From the IMG/VR virus record IMGVR_UViG_2541047775_000007: a DNA stretch of 43,098 bases. The stretch is one strand, 5' to 3'. Within the stretch, counting starts at the first letter, position 1; each line of letters opens with the position of its first letter. Below are positions 5,091 through 43,098 of this stretch, in pieces. Origin of the DNA: a virus (lineage: Duplodnaviria; Heunggongvirae; Uroviricota; Caudoviricetes). The position numbers and the translations under genes were made by a program. The notes under the pieces were generated by a model. That model had not been told where the DNA came from and searched no databases. It was given only the letters and a program-made list of their open reading frames with translations.

Positions 5091-5387
5091 TCAAATAGAG
5101 AAATAAACACAAAAACAAAAAACAACAGGAACAGCAAAATCCAACAGACTTCCCACATCCCACACGCGTGGATCAAAACCTCCCCACCACGGCATGTTGA
5201 TACGTTTCCCTTTCCCAAACTTTTCTATCCAGCGATATTCTGCCTGGGTGTGTTCACGCGCAATGAAGAACGTACAACCGGCTATCGCACCGTAAGCCCA
5301 GTTTCCGGTAAAAATACCAACCAGTACCTGAGCCACAAAAGCGCAAAGCGAGTGAAGAAATGGAGTGACATCAATGCTCTTAATCAT
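5091..5387 (-). CDS. small membrane protein (98 aa), translationally coupled to the tailspike gene
   Basis: Start codon overlaps tailspike stop (ATGA); 2-3 hydrophobic segments. Confidence 0.5.
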   Translation of the reverse strand: MIKSIDVTPFLHSLCAFVAQVLVGIFTGNWAYGAIAGCTFFIAREHTQAEYRWIEKFGKGKRINMPWWGGFDPRVWDVGSLLDFAVPVVFCFCVYFSI

Positions 5388-7573
5388 GAAACTTCCCCAT
5401 TGGTTGAAAATATGGCTCCTCCAACGCCAAGTGTATTTCGTGTTGTGCTCAACCTCAGAGGGCTGGAGTCAGAATTAGAATATCCTGTAGCAGAAATAAA
5501 AGATCCTCCACTAATAGTCAACTGCGGAACATCGGCTATATCTGAATAAGTTCTGTCAGCAACAGTATTATTTATAGCCACATATGATCCAAAAAAACTT
5601 CTTATTGTTTGGTTTTTAACTTTACTTCCTTCAATGGTTATCCTACTACCACAGTCGGCAATAAATCCTGAATCTGCATCCAGCGTTGCATTCATAAAAG
5701 AAGCTTCAGATCTCTCTACATCAATCCATCTAATATCTTTTGTGGGATTTGCACCAAATACATGACAAATATTAGAGTTAAACCTTACACCATCTTGGAG
5801 GTGCATTAATTTTTTTATATCTGTACCCCATAGCCTTGGAAAATTAACAGATGCTCCTGCATGGCAATCAAATCCCAGCTCAGCCCCTGAGATATCTACA
5901 GCCTTTCCTGAAATAACAGCACCAGTGTCTGCATTAACGGCTGTTCCACAATTGCGCATATCATTACCAGCAACATCAACGCAACCCGCACCATCAATAC
6001 GCACACCAAGTGCACATCCATAAAAACCTTTTTCAATATTTGGTTCAAGGACTTTACCACTTGTTTCTGCATCACTTTCTTCAACGTCATGTCGTCTTGC
6101 ATCAACATATGCTGTATGAATGCAGGTTAATCCACGATATGAGCAATGTATAGTTTTATGGTCGCGTATATTAACATTTGAACCATCTCTTACATTCCAT
6201 CCTATATAACAATAGCTTGCACTTGACCCCTGAAAATCTGCTTTAACATTATAAATACAATTAACTGACGCAACCGTACTCTCTGTGCACCGTTCAAACT
6301 TGCTTACAGGCATTGATGCCTTGACATTATTTACCAGTTGCAGGGAAGAGTATCTGCTATAAGAAAAATCACATACGTAATACCCTTCTGGCATATATGC
6401 AGCAACACTTTCCTCATCAGGAGCACATCCGGTATGATATGCACTAATTTTTGCACCAAAACTACCATGAATTCCAACGTAGAACTTTCGAGCACCTGAA
6501 TACGGATAGAAATTAAGTTCAGCTTTTTGAGTTACAATAAATGCACAAACATCGCTATCATCTCTATTTTCTTCGATCTGAATAGCAAATACAGGACTTT
6601 TTGCTGCATCGCAAATGTAAAATAAATACTTGTATTCGTAATACGTTCTAACGATTTTAGTAAACAAACGAGTGTCAGAGAAAACCACTGAGTCTTCTGA
6701 TGTTATTTTAATCCAAGACAAATCAACACCTGAACTGAATTCAATTTGATAGTTGATAATATGCCCGGTCTTAATTCTTATTTCGCAGAAAGCATTACCA
6801 CCATCCCACATAGGTCTCATTGACTGGGCTGCAATGATTGCATCTTTGAGTGTAGGGTAATCACCCCATTCGCCAACAGTAATAACAAAAGTATAATATG
6901 AGTTAAAAACAGCGGCATTTTTGCCTTTGGATATCAACTCCTTAATCATAAAAATATTATCTTCGTAATCACAAGGAGAAATTATATCCCTCATTTTGCT
7001 TTGAAATGTTCGTTGTCTTGCCCCGCTTCCTGACGGTATAAACCAACCAAAACCACCAACAACCCCGGCGATTGCAGCATCGACATAATTACGCATTGAG
7101 CGATTATTTACAGCATCCTGCTCAAGTGATGGATCTGCAAGGTTAGAAATTCTGTTTTGCTTTGCATCGTAATATTTTGCAAGCAGAGAGGGCTTCATCA
7201 ATGCACGTCTGAACCACCCAAAACATTGCTGGATCAGCATCGTCAGGTAGTCAAAGGCATCTTCATGCACTTCGGGGAAAAATTTTCCCTGATTGCGAAG
7301 GTCTGTCTCCTGCACTACATCAAGCACACGATCTATCGTAATTCGCCATCCAGTAGCAAGCGGAGACGGAAGAACCACAGAACCGCCACTATAAGTGCCC
7401 GCCCCAGTTACCGTATAACCGGTATCCAGGACCAATTCTGTTACGTTCCCGTTCAGGTCAGACACCTGAACAACCAGGTCTGATTTTCTGAAAATTCGAA
7501 AAGTATACGGAAACGATGTCGTAACGCCGTTACCGGTGTATTCGTTGTGGTCAACTTCGGTTGAGACCGTCAT
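5384..7573 (-). CDS. tailspike / tail fibre with conserved N-terminal virion-attachment domain and probable beta-helix receptor-binding/depolymerase body (729 aa)
   Basis: N-terminus MTVSTEVDHNEYTGNGVTTSFPYTFRIFRKSDLVV matches the conserved podovirus tail-fibre/tailspike N-domain motif; AT-rich body with many Cys and Asn/Gly repeats; RBS ggag before ATG. Confidence 0.8.
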   Translation of the reverse strand: MTVSTEVDHNEYTGNGVTTSFPYTFRIFRKSDLVVQVSDLNGNVTELVLDTGYTVTGAGTYSGGSVVLPSPLATGWRITIDRVLDVVQETDLRNQGKFFPEVHEDAFDYLTMLIQQCFGWFRRALMKPSLLAKYYDAKQNRISNLADPSLEQDAVNNRSMRNYVDAAIAGVVGGFGWFIPSGSGARQRTFQSKMRDIISPCDYEDNIFMIKELISKGKNAAVFNSYYTFVITVGEWGDYPTLKDAIIAAQSMRPMWDGGNAFCEIRIKTGHIINYQIEFSSGVDLSWIKITSEDSVVFSDTRLFTKIVRTYYEYKYLFYICDAAKSPVFAIQIEENRDDSDVCAFIVTQKAELNFYPYSGARKFYVGIHGSFGAKISAYHTGCAPDEESVAAYMPEGYYVCDFSYSRYSSLQLVNNVKASMPVSKFERCTESTVASVNCIYNVKADFQGSSASYCYIGWNVRDGSNVNIRDHKTIHCSYRGLTCIHTAYVDARRHDVEESDAETSGKVLEPNIEKGFYGCALGVRIDGAGCVDVAGNDMRNCGTAVNADTGAVISGKAVDISGAELGFDCHAGASVNFPRLWGTDIKKLMHLQDGVRFNSNICHVFGANPTKDIRWIDVERSEASFMNATLDADSGFIADCGSRITIEGSKVKNQTIRSFFGSYVAINNTVADRTYSDIADVPQLTISGGSFISATGYSNSDSSPLRLSTTRNTLGVGGAIFSTNGEVS

Positions 7574-7677
7574 GTTAAATCTCCAGATAGTCGCAGCACC
7601 CGTTGCGCCGCATATCTGGTTATTCTATTACCTGAAAAACCACATATGGATAAAAAGGCTGTAAATACGAATAGATA

Positions 7678-8030: not shown

Positions 8031-8052
8031 AAAGGCCGCAAGAGCGGCCTAT
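8031..8052. terminator. bidirectional intrinsic terminator (aggccgc-aaga-gcggcct) between convergent genes
   Basis: 7-bp GC stem flanked by T/A-rich runs on both sides; nearly identical hairpin recurs at 11282-11299. Confidence 0.55.
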
Positions 8053-8777
8053 CGTTTCGCTTTGTGCTCGTCCCAGCACGTTTTGCACCATGCCATTAAG
8101 CCATCCGCATTTTGATTATTAGGGTAAAAGCTTGTTCGTTTTCTGCGGACATTACAAATTGGGCACCACTTCATATGGCGTGTATTCTTTGGGCCATCGA
8201 GACACCTTGCACACCACTTAGTCAATCCATCTGGATTTTTTGACGATTTCCTGAATTTTTCATATGGTAGGTTTATTCTGCATCGCAAGCACTGCTTGCT
8301 ACCACTTGAAACTCTGTTAGCTGATTCTTCTTTTGGCGGCGATACAGAAGGTATTCTTGCTGGCTCTGATACTGCCTGAGGTGCTTTTTTAGATGACTGA
8401 GACGATATGTCATCACCAGGGAATCTTCCATGATATGCCGGACGCATTGACACTCCAGGTGGAAGCTCAGCTGTAAACGGCTTTGGCTGAATCAGTTGCC
8501 TCTCTTTTGCTAACTCCTGCTGTTTATAATATGTCTGGATTACCGCACTATCATAAGCAGGAGGTGCGGAAATATTAGGCGCATTACCTCCAGTTTTTTG
8601 AAACTGAGTAGAGGTGTGTTCTATCACCTGTGTACGATTAATCGTTATCTCCCCATCTTCGGTCTTTATCGTTTTGTTATGATTAACGACCGTACGATCA
8701 GAGATCTTAGTCTTGTTCTGGTTGATAACGTAAATAATCACCGCAACCACACCAACAACTATCCAGAAAACTTCCAT
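8049..8777 (-). CDS. membrane-anchored protein with C-terminal tandem CxxC zinc-ribbon-like motifs (242 aa)
   Basis: RBS gaggaaaag before ATG; N-terminal TM helix; long low-complexity linker; C-terminus CLRC...NPDGLTKWCARC...WCPIC...NADGLMAWCKTC (duplicated DGL..WC..C unit). Confidence 0.7.
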   Translation of the reverse strand: MEVFWIVVGVVAVIIYVINQNKTKISDRTVVNHNKTIKTEDGEITINRTQVIEHTSTQFQKTGGNAPNISAPPAYDSAVIQTYYKQQELAKERQLIQPKPFTAELPPGVSMRPAYHGRFPGDDISSQSSKKAPQAVSEPARIPSVSPPKEESANRVSSGSKQCLRCRINLPYEKFRKSSKNPDGLTKWCARCLDGPKNTRHMKWCPICNVRRKRTSFYPNNQNADGLMAWCKTCWDEHKAKR

Positions 8778-9947: not shown

Positions 9948-10157
9948 ATGGGATTTTGGTTCGCTCGTACAAAAACGAGGGATAATGCACCCAGCCCTCA
10001 GGCAAAAAATGCAGAAGTTCCGGCGTCAGCGCAGGTTAACAAGCGTGGTGGTGTGTATATCTCATCACAGCAAATTTCTGAGCTTCCTGAGGTTAAGGAG
10101 ATGCGTCGTCTCGCTGCTGCAATCGTTAAACAGGATCTTGCCACTGTAAGGAAATAG
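9948..10157 (+). CDS. small hydrophilic protein (69 aa), first gene of a two-gene cassette
   Basis: Very strong RBS gaggaggagat before ATG; stop overlaps start of downstream gene. Confidence 0.6.
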   Translation: MGFWFARTKTRDNAPSPQAKNAEVPASAQVNKRGGVYISSQQISELPEVKEMRRLAAAIVKQDLATVRK

Positions 10158-11023
10158 TGTTGTTAGCTCTTCTAATTATCCCCATTCTGGTTAGTGGTTA
10201 TATTATGATAACCGCTAACCAGTATCATTATTTCCGTTTATACCGACATGAAGGCCAGCTTCTTTATATGAAAGTAGCTGCATTAGGTACATATTGCCTT
10301 GTTGCTTCGGTAATAATTGCCGCATTTATAAAATATAAATATCCTGATTTTCACCTAGTTCACGATATGGTGGAAACTTTTAATGTAACGTCAAAACCAG
10401 AAACAGATAGAATTTACATGTGGCTGCTTCTTCTCTCAGCCACATCCATTTGCTTCTCTTTGTGTTATGTGTCTGTTGTGTGGGTGAAAGATTTTCTTCT
10501 TGGTTGTTTTTATAAACGTGATATTTACGAGCAAAAAACAGAGGCAATGAAGGCCAGAGTACTGCGAAAAACTTACTCGCAAGGTTCTTTAGACTTACTA
10601 TTGCTTGATGCTATTGAATCGGATCCTAAACGACCAATGCTGATTACTTTATCATCAAACAAAGTGTATGTTGGAATAATAAATGGTTCTGGTGAACCAA
10701 CGGAAAATCAGGGTCCGCATCAGCACATATCTTTTGTTCCTTTAATGTCAGGATACAGGAACAAAGACAACTTATCTGTCACATTCACTAATGCTTATCC
10801 AGGAGAAATACAGGTCAAGCGGACTGCAGCAATAAGAGGAATTAGCAGAAAGAAAGTGCCAGGACTTGAGATCATGGTGTCTATTGACGAAATAAGTTAT
10901 ATATCATGGTTTGATTTTGAAGTATATAAAGCAACAAATAACAAAGTAGAATCCAGGGGGCACGTTATTCGTGTTACCAAAAATGGAAGAAATATATATC
11001 AAAGAAATAGCAAAAAAGAATAG
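10157..11023 (+). CDS. AT-rich membrane protein (288 aa; about 3 N-terminal TM helices plus about 170-aa C-terminal domain), candidate superinfection-exclusion/defence protein
   Basis: GTG start with RBS aaggaaa, overlapping upstream stop; markedly lower GC than flanking phage genes; strong terminator downstream. Confidence 0.6.
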   Translation: MLLALLIIPILVSGYIMITANQYHYFRLYRHEGQLLYMKVAALGTYCLVASVIIAAFIKYKYPDFHLVHDMVETFNVTSKPETDRIYMWLLLLSATSICFSLCYVSVVWVKDFLLGCFYKRDIYEQKTEAMKARVLRKTYSQGSLDLLLLDAIESDPKRPMLITLSSNKVYVGIINGSGEPTENQGPHQHISFVPLMSGYRNKDNLSVTFTNAYPGEIQVKRTAAIRGISRKKVPGLEIMVSIDEISYISWFDFEVYKATNNKVESRGHVIRVTKNGRNIYQRNSKKE

Positions 11024-28206: not shown

Positions 28207-28283
28207 GTGGCATTAGCTCAGTTGGACAGAGCAACCGCCTTCTAAGCGGTTGGTCGCAGGTTCGAATCCTGCATGCCACGCCA
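28207..28283 (+). tRNA. tRNA-Arg (anticodon TCT), phage-encoded
   Basis: Manual cloverleaf: acceptor gtggcat/atgccac, D-arm gctc...gagc, anticodon stem accgc/gcggt with loop CTTCTAA, T-arm gcagg-ttcgaat-cctgc, discriminator G plus encoded CCA. Confidence 0.85.
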
Positions 28284-41850: not shown

Positions 41851-43098
41851 TTATCCCGCCATCCACTTCTCAAACTTCGACGGGGAGAACGGAATCAGAT
41901 CCGTATGCTCCCCGTCAATCCAGGAATCAATCATATCGGCCCACTGCTGCAACATGTAGGCGCGCTGTCTGGCGTATTCCGCTTTGTTATATACGGCGCG
42001 CACACCTTTCTGCTCATGTGCCAGAGCCTTTTCAATCCAGTCTGAAGGATAACCAGCCTCATGCAACAACGTACTTGCTGTACGGCGCATATCGTGTACG
42101 GTGAAGCCCTGAATATGCTCACCATCTTCATTTATTATTTTCACCGTTCTGTCGATCAGAGAGTTCAGCGCGGCATTAGATAATGGCTTCCGGAAATTGT
42201 AACGACCAGGAACCAGATATTCACTTCCACCAGCGCACATCTGCAACCCGACCAATATATCCTGAGCCTGTTTAGGCAGGTAAATAACGTGCGCCCGGCT
42301 TCCCTTCATGCGGTCTGAAGGAATTGTCCATGTCCATTTTTTAAAATCTATTTCATCCCACGTTGCGTTGGTGAATTCGCCTTTACGAACCATAGTGATA
42401 AGCACCAGCTTTAAAGCCATTTTCATAGTGCCCATAGCACCAATGGCATCCAGCGTGCGGAAGAACAGGCCAATTTCTTCTGGTGTCAGTGTTCGCTCTC
42501 GTGGTTTAAATATGGCGATAGACGAAGGTTTAATGTCAGCCGCAGGATTAAACAAACCATGACCACGGTCATTGGCGTGACGGTATACGCTGCTGATGAT
42601 CTCCCTGGCCTGTACTGCTGTTGCCCGACCACCGCGTTCGACAATCCGGTCACACAAATCACGAACCATCGATGTGGTAATTTCAGCCATCATTTTGTTG
42701 CCAAGAACCGGAAGTATGTCACGGTCGATCACCGCCTGCTTCATTGCGCGGGTACTGTCAGCCAGGATGACGTGTTTCATATAACTGTCGGTATGTACCG
42801 CAAACGTCTCAGCACCACGAATCTTTTTGATACCGTCACGTTTAGCCGCAGCCGGTGACTGGCCTGCTTTAAGCAGCTTCTTTGCAGCAATCAGTTCTTC
42901 CCGCGCTTCTGCCAGGCTGATACCGTCACGCCCATACTGCCCGATTACCAGTGTTTCGCGGCGACCGTTGATACGGTAGTCATAGCGAAACGAGACCGTG
43001 CCTGACGTAAGCACAGCTACATACAGCCCGTCACGATCGGAGACCTTGTACAGTTTGTCCTGCGGCTTGAGGTTTTTTAATTTTGTATCGGTAAGCAC
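41851..43098 (-). CDS. int: tyrosine integrase, P4-type (N-terminus at or 1-2 codons beyond window end)
   Basis: N-terminal LTDTKLKNLKP...LYVAV arm-binding pattern and C-terminal catalytic region with R...H..R...Y spacing typical of P4-like integrases. Confidence 0.85.
   Translation of the reverse strand: MLTDTKLKNLKPQDKLYKVSDRDGLYVAVLTSGTVSFRYDYRINGRRETLVIGQYGRDGISLAEAREELIAAKKLLKAGQSPAAAKRDGIKKIRGAETFAVHTDSYMKHVILADSTRAMKQAVIDRDILPVLGNKMMAEITTSMVRDLCDRIVERGGRATAVQAREIISSVYRHANDRGHGLFNPAADIKPSSIAIFKPRERTLTPEEIGLFFRTLDAIGAMGTMKMALKLVLITMVRKGEFTNATWDEIDFKKWTWTIPSDRMKGSRAHVIYLPKQAQDILVGLQMCAGGSEYLVPGRYNFRKPLSNAALNSLIDRTVKIINEDGEHIQGFTVHDMRRTASTLLHEAGYPSDWIEKALAHEQKGVRAVYNKAEYARQRAYMLQQWADMIDSWIDGEHTDLIPFSPSKFEKWMAG

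Follow-up and report, generated by a model that had tools for sequence, protein, structure and literature searches.

The window, i.e. the whole stretch of 43,098 nucleotides that was analyzed, is a phiV10/epsilon15-like (Uetakevirus) prophage of Escherichia coli. From position 2964 onwards it is 96.8-97.9% identical to HEMP4, phiv142-3 and phiV10. A lysis cassette lies downstream of the tailspike gene and an integrase at 41851-43098, and in E. coli PD23 the prophage adjoins yfgI. The tailspike locus comprises the following features, given with the evidence for each:

7581..7584, minus strand: Shine-Dalgarno-like GGAG, 7 nt 5' of the ATG at 7573 (sequence reading)
5384..7573, minus strand: complete tailspike (receptor-binding protein) gene (open reading frame list; full-length match to PHROG 5662 'tail fiber protein')
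7040..7573, minus strand: N-terminal tail-attachment anchor, aa 1-178, a conserved Uetakevirus/epsilon15-type module (DNA identity ends at nt 536)
6757..7039, minus strand: neck and first turns of the body, aa 179 to ~272 (28-48% identity to the JEP4-type body)
5387..6756, minus strand: main right-handed beta-helix receptor-binding body, aa ~273-729 (98% DNA and 99-100% amino acid identity to JEP4/HZ41)
5091..5387, minus strand: gene for a 98-aa membrane protein with two TM segments, PHROG 1443, function unknown (open reading frame; PHROG match)

The tailspike reading frame encodes 729 aa, and its coordinates and strand match the original prediction exactly. The whole gene is 99.0% DNA-identical to Escherichia phage HEMP4 and is therefore already present in GenBank, as well as in PHROGs. 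A scan for promoters and terminators around it returned hits at chance level only. Its product would be the single tailspike of a temperate podovirus integrated beside yfgI in the E. coli chromosome.

A genus-wide anchor and a laterally exchanged body

The first 536 nucleotides of the gene (aa 1-178) are 98.5-99.8% DNA-identical to the tail-fibre genes of phiv142-3, EC.W1-9, ZX5 and Phi05, all Uetakevirus genes that carry unrelated bodies. At the protein level, the receptor-binding protein (RBP) of phiv142-3 shows 95% identity over aa 1-203 and no match beyond, and aa 1-202 match the N-terminus of the solved Dpo31/Dpo36 tailspike (E=3.8e-32). PHROG matches to the N-terminus span from 1-166 to 1-206, and the N-terminal 180-205 residues are homologous to the anchor of the phiV10 RBP. 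The Pfam model PF03906 (Phage_T7_tail) reached 13.8 bits against a cut-off of 25.2 (E=0.047), over aa 135-161 only. The conserved N-terminal adaptor proposed in the original prediction is thus real and genus-wide, although at 178 residues it is longer than the roughly 110 suggested. This near-invariant segment would dock the spike, presumably a trimer, to the tail.

GC and GC3 are 0.47 and 0.44 in aa 1-178 but 0.38 and 0.24 in aa 179-729, compared with a GC of 0.488 for the whole window and a GC3 of about 0.45-0.6 for other phage ORFs. The body contains 17 cysteines, i.e. 3.1% of its residues versus 0.77% across 26 of the window's other ORFs. C263, C401, C477, C520 and C542 show little or no variation among homologues, and several Cys pairs are exactly 22 residues apart, a spacing compatible with a stacking ladder in the core of a beta-helix. 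The AT-rich and Cys-rich character originally ascribed to the body therefore holds, while its supposed wealth of Asn/Gly turns does not, Asn plus Gly amounting to 13.7% and falling inside the range of other ORFs.

The anticipated beta-helix, right-handed and parallel, was found in a predicted monomer model (pLDDT 93.7), for which Foldseek gave 8egr (Andhra gp15) as the closest structure (E=1e-12). In the model the neck region forms helices followed by the first strands, and at the DNA level its GC falls to 0.38. Pfam Beta_helix matches 2 of 24 homologues. The family is small: a phmmer search of 1.84 billion sequences gave 138 representatives at E<=1e-3, of which 16 remained at E<=1e-30, and added no annotated relatives. 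The clusters P0001 and P0002, which encode this body, comprise about 190 member sequences each. Pfam and NCBIfam returned nothing above threshold for the whole protein. When the PDB was searched by sequence, the body alone gave no match at E<=10, the hits of a mixed alignment (A1) were confined to homologues' adaptors, and a profile built on the body (A2) found nothing below E=0.69.

Lateral exchange of the body, also part of the original prediction, can be seen directly. In the P22-like phage JEP4, the tailspike region is 97.9% DNA-identical to positions 5128-6756 of the window, yet the spike begins with PF09008, a P22 head-binding domain, in place of the Uetakevirus anchor. Diverged homologues at 37-89% identity are carried on P22 head-binding, TSP1/gp66, tail-collar and T7-type adaptors. 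The anchor occurs with other bodies and the body with other anchors, as in an exchangeable particle-binding module. Megablast of the neck region (6757..7039) against JEP4 found no match; by identity per 25 residues to the prophage protein P0002, aa 179 to ~272 fall into one family with the JEP4-type body.

The gene at 5091..5387, which overlaps the tailspike stop and whose product has hydrophobic segments at residues 5-28 and 75-98, contains the point where the exchanged block ends on its right side. Positions 5300-5383 are 98.8% identical to JEP4 and 79.8% to phiv142-3, positions 5200-5299 are 99-100% identical to both, and similarity to JEP4 stops at 5128. The module was gained by recombination, with a left junction inside the body near aa 273 and a right junction in the conserved stretch of this small membrane-protein gene. 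It circulates on P22-like phages, and diverged forms occur on three or more further adaptor types.

Capsule loci and O-antigen clusters of the lysogens

The group 2 capsule loci of 118UI and PD23 both encode a galactosyltransferase, a TagF-like phosphotransferase and an acyltransferase, the last of which implies an acylated polymer. Pairwise identities between the two loci are 63.110% for the galactosyltransferase, 47.1% for the TagF-like protein and 71.3% for the acyltransferase. The kTYPr supplement gives 63.11, 48.4 and 68.5 for K52 and K116. Because our values match these, we refer to the 118UI locus as K52-type and to the PD23 locus as K116-type, names that come from gene content, gene order and the supplementary table and not from a typing tool. 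The same supplement notes a rearranged kpsT/kpsM for K52, and 118UI shows this rearrangement. K52 is cited as a phosphodiester-bridged, fructose-containing polysaccharide.

We surveyed 5,426 complete E. coli genomes and found 16 lysogens carrying the body. Region 2 of the 118UI-type kps locus is complete in 40 of these genomes, ten of them lysogens, while PD23-type region 2 occurs in nine, of which five are lysogens. Fifteen of the 16 lysogens thus fall within the 49 K52-/K116-type genomes, where 0.14 would be expected (hypergeometric P=3e-31); this figure counts genomes and not independent events, as a single CC69 clone probably accounts for many of the K52 lysogens and certain records are present twice (CB7286 = OZ392470). 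A tree-free estimate puts the number of independent acquisitions at 7-8 or more. The capsule link is read from lysogens among the complete genomes, a set that does not include the window's own host and whose best match to the window covers only 81%, and the tracking of capsule type by RBD subtype among the lysogens is correlative. Judged from these sequences, the specificity is most likely capsular (K52/K116).

Another possibility is phylogenetic hitch-hiking in a few lineages, e.g. CC69 and ST38 relatives, with some other surface structure as the true receptor. CC69 is the main K52 lineage, and many K52 lysogens match the window in the same pattern (98.2%) and may be one clone. The sole exception among the 16 lysogens, EC332, carries two copies of the body but lacks a K52/K116 locus, and a search of 76 kb of its pheV-side island yielded no kps. 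We nevertheless consider hitch-hiking quite unlikely, because two unrelated prophage types, one with the Uetakevirus and one with the P22-type adaptor, each carry the body in both K52 and K116 hosts. The carriers also make up more than half of the K116 genomes and come from human, pig, chicken, chicken meat and seawater, with differing O types and K52 alleles. Furthermore, sister Uetakevirus prophages with other spikes sit in genomes outside the 49.

The original prediction named either O-antigen or capsule as the determinant of specificity. Its capsule half agrees with the distribution described above; its O-antigen half is unsupported because bodies at least 99.9% identical occur in lysogens with O83, O11 and O15 gene clusters, so that the RBD subtype does not track one O serogroup. 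An O-antigen receptor is therefore unlikely. This alternative would make the protein an O-antigen-specific endoglycosidase like the phiV10, epsilon15, P22, Sf6 and HK620 spikes, and the capsule link a by-product of lineage. Uetakevirus and Lederbergvirus RBPs have such specificity by default (Pas et al. 2023), and the beta-helix fold is common to O-antigen endoglycosidases (HK620, Sf6, CBA120 TSPs). Yet 35 of the 36 O83 genomes are without the body, and another O83 strain, B1, has at the same site a sister prophage with a GH28-type spike. Pas et al. (2023) themselves take RBPs that span multiple O groups to be directed, in all likelihood, at a different structure, e.g. the K antigen. Taken with the varied O backgrounds, these observations make an O-antigen endoglycosidase improbable.

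RBP1 of PGN829.1 has been reported in prophages of O11/O83/O86/O102 strains; we rejected it as a candidate for the same body, PGN829.1 being present in the collection searched but giving no tblastn match. The host range of JEP4 (48% of 67 poultry isolates) was set aside as receptor evidence, because the paper reports a large myovirus while the genome is a 39-kb P22-like one, and phenotype and sequence may not belong together. JEP4, HZ41 and HEMP4 are absent from Pas et al. (2023) and its supplements, and the literature on HEMP4 and VEc3 yielded nothing useful.

Proposed function and relation to known tailspikes

Overall, it seems probable that the gene encodes a tailspike with a conserved anchor and an exchanged beta-helix which targets, and probably cuts, the phosphodiester-linked K52/K116 capsule and not the O-antigen. 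The K52 and K116 kps loci would supply the receptor, a group 2 capsular polysaccharide with phosphodiester linkages and O-acyl groups, and aa 179-729, a neck followed by a long right-handed beta-helix, would form the host-recognition module. Basic residues invariant across homologues are R337, R362, K363, R462, R470, H486, R493, R540 and R580. D294 and D463 are likewise invariant and, together with R462, R470, H486 and R493, may line a groove along which the spike would bind the polymer. The backbone would then probably be cut at a glycosyl-phosphate or phosphodiester bond, which would open a path for the virion through the capsule as far as the outer membrane. An anionic, acylated substrate fits the protein in view of its invariant Arg, Lys and His residues and of the SGNH esterase carried by two of its homologues.

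The fold, the habit of the family and the conserved charged residues suggest a depolymerase; by sequence, the body matches no characterized enzyme, enzyme family or solved structure. A beta-helix adhesin that binds the K52/K116 capsule without enzymatic activity, merely tethering the virion, is an alternative to which we assign a small chance. A body acting as a capsule-modifying esterase, which would remove O-acetyl or O-propionyl groups instead of cutting the backbone, would be in keeping with the acyltransferases of both capsule loci and hence an acylated polymer. Deacetylating tailspikes are known, e.g. G7C gp63.1 and those of Vi phages. Those known use SGNH domains, not beta-helices, and in our family an SGNH domain is a separate C-terminal addition in only 2 of the 24 homologues, suggesting that the body itself does something else. 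We regard the esterase as very improbable.

The architecture of the protein is ordinary, since modular tailspikes are well known and the gene is already in public databases. Its usefulness lies in the predicted target, a clinically important capsule. K52 is the main K type of the multidrug-resistant CC69 lineage and is reported to have the highest estimated invasive potential among K types in UK bloodstream infections, with an OR of 11.6 (PMC13171598). Our literature search found no paper on a phage enzyme for E. coli K52. If specific for K52/K116, the protein could serve as a typing reagent, a candidate anti-virulence enzyme or a module to retarget phages or tailocins. The comparison of surface-polysaccharide loci among lysogens may also prove useful as a method, as it can assign the receptor of a temperate phage where O-serogroup logic fails.

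A more far-reaching proposal, which we put forward tentatively and think rather doubtful as a whole, is that this is the first phage enzyme to be identified whose target is the K52/K116 capsules, with their teichoic-acid-like phosphodiester linkages, of extraintestinal pathogenic E. coli. It would cut a glycosyl-phosphate or phosphodiester and not a glycosidic bond, and would share ancestry with the beta-helix appendages that Gram-positive picoviruses (Andhra, phi29 relatives) direct at teichoic acid. If true, both the substrate class and the cross-phylum link would be new for coliphage depolymerases.

Among known systems, the Uetakevirus RBPs (phiV10, epsilon15, phiv142-3, ZX5, PAS61) belong to the same genus, occupy the same gene position and have a near-identical anchor over aa 1-178, following the modular logic described by Pas et al. 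(2023). The body is unrelated to theirs beyond aa ~203, and it is predicted to target a group 2 capsule instead of O157 or other O-antigens. Whereas phiV10 has an O-antigen acetyltransferase gene beside its RBP, none adjoins the tailspike here. In the P22-like JEP4 and HZ41 and in P0002, the body from aa ~300 to the C-terminus is 99-100% identical (98% for DNA), and JEP4 and HZ41 likewise share the start of the downstream small gene. All three differ in having PF09008 at the N-terminus and in the neck and first turns, which are only 28-48% identical.

Andhra gp15 of Staphylococcus epidermidis (PDB 8egr) is the closest structure, at 16% identity, and the likeness is structural only; homology could not be shown by sequence because the PDB gave no sequence or profile match. 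Andhra is a Gram-positive picovirus with a different N-terminal attachment, and the activity of its gp15 is itself not established. The likeness to phi29 gp12 (PDB 3gq7) is no better than that to many other beta-helices, with no sequence relation. phi29 gp12 has an autocleaving C-terminal chaperone, which is not seen in our tailspike. The K5 lyase (PDB 2x3h) and the K1 endosialidases are capsule-specific coliphage spikes without sequence relation to the body, and they act on glycosidically linked acidic polysaccharides, whereas the substrate predicted here is phosphodiester-linked.

Prophage setting and modular build of the tailspike gene

The tailspike gene belongs to a temperate podovirus of the genus Uetakevirus (phiV10/epsilon15 type), which spans about 2964-43098 and is integrated beside yfgI, as in strain PD23. 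From 2964 onwards the window shares 96.8-97.9% identity with Escherichia phages HEMP4, phiv142-3 and phiV10; its left end holds an IS5 transposase and yfgI, a host gene, and its right end an integrase. PHROG 5662 ("tail fiber protein") matches the tailspike ORF end to end, and the gene is already public, with 99.0% DNA identity to its HEMP4 counterpart. Downstream of it come the genes for a small membrane protein, two holins and an endolysin, and a spanin-like gene.

Features of the tailspike region and left end
5384-7573, minus strand: tailspike, a single ORF of 729 aa
7573, minus strand: ATG start codon, with GGAG 7 nt upstream
5091-5387, minus strand: small membrane protein with two TM segments, 98 aa, overlapping the tailspike stop (PHROG 1443, 4.1% Cys)
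1-981 and 1623-2162: IS5-family transposase and, next to it, the host gene yfgI

The prophage also carries a tRNA-Arg (anticodon TCT; 28207-28283, plus strand). A 288-aa ORF (10157-11023, plus strand; PHROG 3630) sits in a 36% GC island, has no match in Pfam, NCBIfam or PADLOC and may be a moron. A 242-aa ORF (8049-8777, minus strand) has a hydrophobic N-terminal segment, a Cys-rich C-terminus (3.3% Cys) and weak matches to endonuclease VII/Lar-like zinc-ribbon families.

The original prediction of an AT-rich, Cys-rich body was borne out. The body (aa 179-729) has 38% GC and a GC3 of 0.24, against 48.8% GC for the window, while the anchor (aa 1-178) has 47% GC and a GC3 of 0.44, and GC3 of the other phage genes is about 0.45-0.6. 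Seventeen of the 18 tailspike cysteines fall in the body, a content of 3.1% against 0.77% for 26 other ORFs. Across homologues, five of them show no or almost no variation, and several are spaced by exactly 22 residues, which we read as a probable stacking ladder within a beta-helix. The noted Asn/Gly turns do not stand out, the share of Asn plus Gly being an ordinary 13.7%.

Conservation of the N-terminus is real but extends beyond the roughly 110 residues first proposed. Nucleotides 1-536 of the gene share 98.5-99.8% DNA identity with phages carrying unrelated bodies, and the phiv142-3 RBP is 95% identical in protein over aa 1-203, with no identity past aa 203. The solved N-terminus of the Dpo31/Dpo36 tailspikes matches residues 1-202 (E=3.8e-32). 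A podovirus attachment domain was correct in function and family (epsilon15/phiV10 type), and the tailspike falls in the Uetakevirus RBP anchor family, though not in PF03906, since the anchor scores below the Pfam T7 tail-fibre N-terminal threshold.

Lateral exchange of the body, also proposed, is directly visible. The DNA at 5128-6756 shares 97.9% identity with JEP4, a P22-like phage whose tailspike N-terminus is a P22 head-binding domain, and distant body homologues carry TSP1/gp66-type (PF18668), tail-collar (PF12571) and T7-type (PF03906) N-termini. Protein identity to the JEP4 spike rises from 28-48% over aa 178-277 to 99-100% from about aa 300 to the end, so the left junction falls within the body, where two diverged alleles of one family meet. 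On the other side, JEP4-like DNA runs beyond the tailspike stop codon into the 98-aa gene: 5300-5383 shares 98.8% identity with JEP4 but 79.8% with phiv142-3, a sister Uetakevirus; 5200-5299 matches both phages at 99-100%; and the JEP4 similarity ends at 5128. The conserved stretch of this gene is the likely right-hand crossover. Both Uetakevirus and P22-like phages conserve the gene 3' of their tailspikes, where it seems to act as a 3' homology arm in spike exchange. Sequenced phages with the body are HEMP4, JEP4, HZ41, 92CQ, VEc3 (48% identity) and Aeromonas phage ZPAH34 (partial). The JEP4 (MT740315) paper describes a contractile-tailed myovirus whose head measures 106 nm, yet the deposited 39-kb genome is that of a P22-like podovirus with integrase and repressor; this record may therefore be an induced prophage and not the phage characterised.

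Fold and family of the spike body

A homologue search with aa 178-729 yielded 24 protein clusters at 37-100% identity. An AlphaFold2 model from their alignment (mean pLDDT 93.7, pTM 0.89) opens with a short helical neck and continues as a long run of short strands to the C-terminus, and Foldseek searches against PDB and against BFVD both agree with the beta-helix fold that was originally suggested. As modelled, the tailspike belongs to the beta-helix tailspike class. At the sequence level no relative was found among solved structures, body-only profile included, and Pfam Beta_helix matched two of the 24 homologues weakly. The best structural match is Andhra gp15, whose likeness to the body is in structure only and not in sequence. 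The family is small and unannotated: an exhaustive phmmer search of 1.84 billion representatives returned 138 relatives at E<=1e-3, of which 16 reach E<=1e-30. Residues R337, R362, K363, D402, R462, D463, R470, H486, R493, D538, R540 and R580 are invariant in the 24 homologues; with relatives of 20-26% identity added, D294, R462, D463, R470, H486 and R493 are still invariant.

Host O types and capsule loci

Lysogens served as evidence for what the spike recognises. Among 5,426 complete E. coli genomes, a collection without the window's own host, 16 carry the body, 11 with a Uetakevirus anchor and five with a P22 head-binding domain. MS 198-1 (NZ_CP146687.1), EC332 (NZ_AP039429.1) and GPEC1186 (NZ_CM142789.1) hold two copies each. 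The O-antigen locus was read in three Uetakevirus-type carriers with bodies at least 99.9% identical, and typed as O83 in PD23, O11 in MS 198-1 and O15 in 118UI. Only one of 36 O83 genomes, PD23, has the body, and in O83 strain B1 the same site is occupied by a sister prophage whose spike is of the GH28 type. An O-serogroup-specific spike is thus unlikely.

118UI has a group 2 capsule (kps) locus with kpsT apart from kpsM. Its serotype-specific region was read gene by gene.

Serotype-specific kps region of 118UI
TagF-like "CDP-glycerol glycerophosphotransferase family" protein, 1,248 aa
Galactosyltransferase-related protein
Acyltransferase, 829 aa
GT2 glycosyltransferase
Two further proteins, 123 aa and 525 aa

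This region is complete in 40 of the 5,426 genomes, ten of them carriers. The simpler PD23 region (galactosyltransferase, TagF-like protein, 262-aa acyltransferase) occurs in nine and accounts for five further carriers. Hence 15 of the 16 carriers fall within 49 genomes (expected 0.14; hypergeometric P 3e-31, with genomes that are not independent). Of the two targets first suggested, O-antigen or capsule, this supports the capsule and not the O-antigen. The association could be a lineage artefact, since several carriers of the 118UI type look clonal and one genome is entered twice, as CB7286 and OZ392470. We consider this quite unlikely: both anchor types are present in each capsule group, carriers come from humans, pigs, chickens, chicken meat and seawater, and genomes not among the 49 contain sister prophages bearing other spikes. 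EC332 is the sole carrier with neither region; at NZ_AP039429.1 4090000-4166000 it has integrases and a type I restriction-modification system where other strains have kps.

Protein identities between the 118UI and PD23 loci are 63.110% (GalT), 47.1% (TagF-like) and 71.3% (acyltransferase N-domain). The kTYPr paper supplement gives 63.11 for K52_13/K116_9, 48.4 for K52_12/K116_8 and 68.5 for K52_10/K116_7, and the paper lists K52 among loci with rearranged kpsM/kpsT. By these pair identities the 118UI locus is probably K52-type and the PD23 locus K116-type, and gene order also fits. The naming gains further support from CC69, in which K52 predominates among K types (PMC13171598): the 40 genomes include an "O15:H18 strain ST69". 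Both types of region have 28-30% GC and the flanking kpsFEDUCS 50%; given their low GC, capsule genes and the 38% GC spike body both look imported from lower-GC sources.

The K52 backbone consists of galactose-1-phosphate; it bears a branch of fructofuranose as well as O-acetyl/O-propionyl groups. K116, with just the three shared genes, would make an unbranched acylated backbone, and the spike presumably sees the backbone common to both. As cited, Hofmann, Jann and Jann (1985) describe K52 as a phosphodiester-bridged, fructose-containing capsular polysaccharide.

Proposed action on the capsule and comparison with known spikes

The tailspike combines an anchor with a beta-helix body and is associated with a phosphate-containing, acylated capsule. 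We propose that it would act as a trimer, bind the polyanionic chain along a groove lined by the conserved basic and acidic residues, and depolymerise the capsule polymer. If the backbone is linked through phosphate alone, depolymerisation would have to break a glycosyl-phosphate or phosphodiester bond. Homologues P0015 and P0018 carry an extra C-terminal SGNH/GDSL esterase domain behind the beta-helix, which suggests a spike combining deacylation with binding or cleavage and fits an acylated substrate; that the body itself is a capsule esterase seems very improbable. A purely adhesive spike, binding the capsule with no enzyme activity, is unlikely. For the proposed depolymerase, the nearest precedents come from Gram-positive picoviruses, whose beta-helix appendages include Andhra gp15 and phi29 gp12. 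Phi29 gp12 degrades poly(glycerol phosphate), and wall teichoic acid is the host receptor of Andhra gp15.

The K52/K116 capsule group matters clinically, and our literature search found no published phage enzyme for it. Pas et al. 2023 reported finding PGN829.1 RBP1, of subtype X3, repeatedly in the prophages of strains typed O11, O83, O86 and O102. PGN829.1 (MH733496) has no match to the body, despite the O11/O83 overlap with two carriers, and X3 could represent another, unrelated family of spikes directed at the same capsule.

The original observation is confirmed and its reading narrowed, with support, to the capsule. The spike neither belongs to PF03906 nor tracks the O-antigen. In architecture and evolution it is a textbook case of the modular tailspikes of Pas et al. 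2023, who suspected K antigens as targets of RBPs spanning several O groups; the new element is that this RBD family, small and unannotated, is assigned to the capsule group K52/K116.
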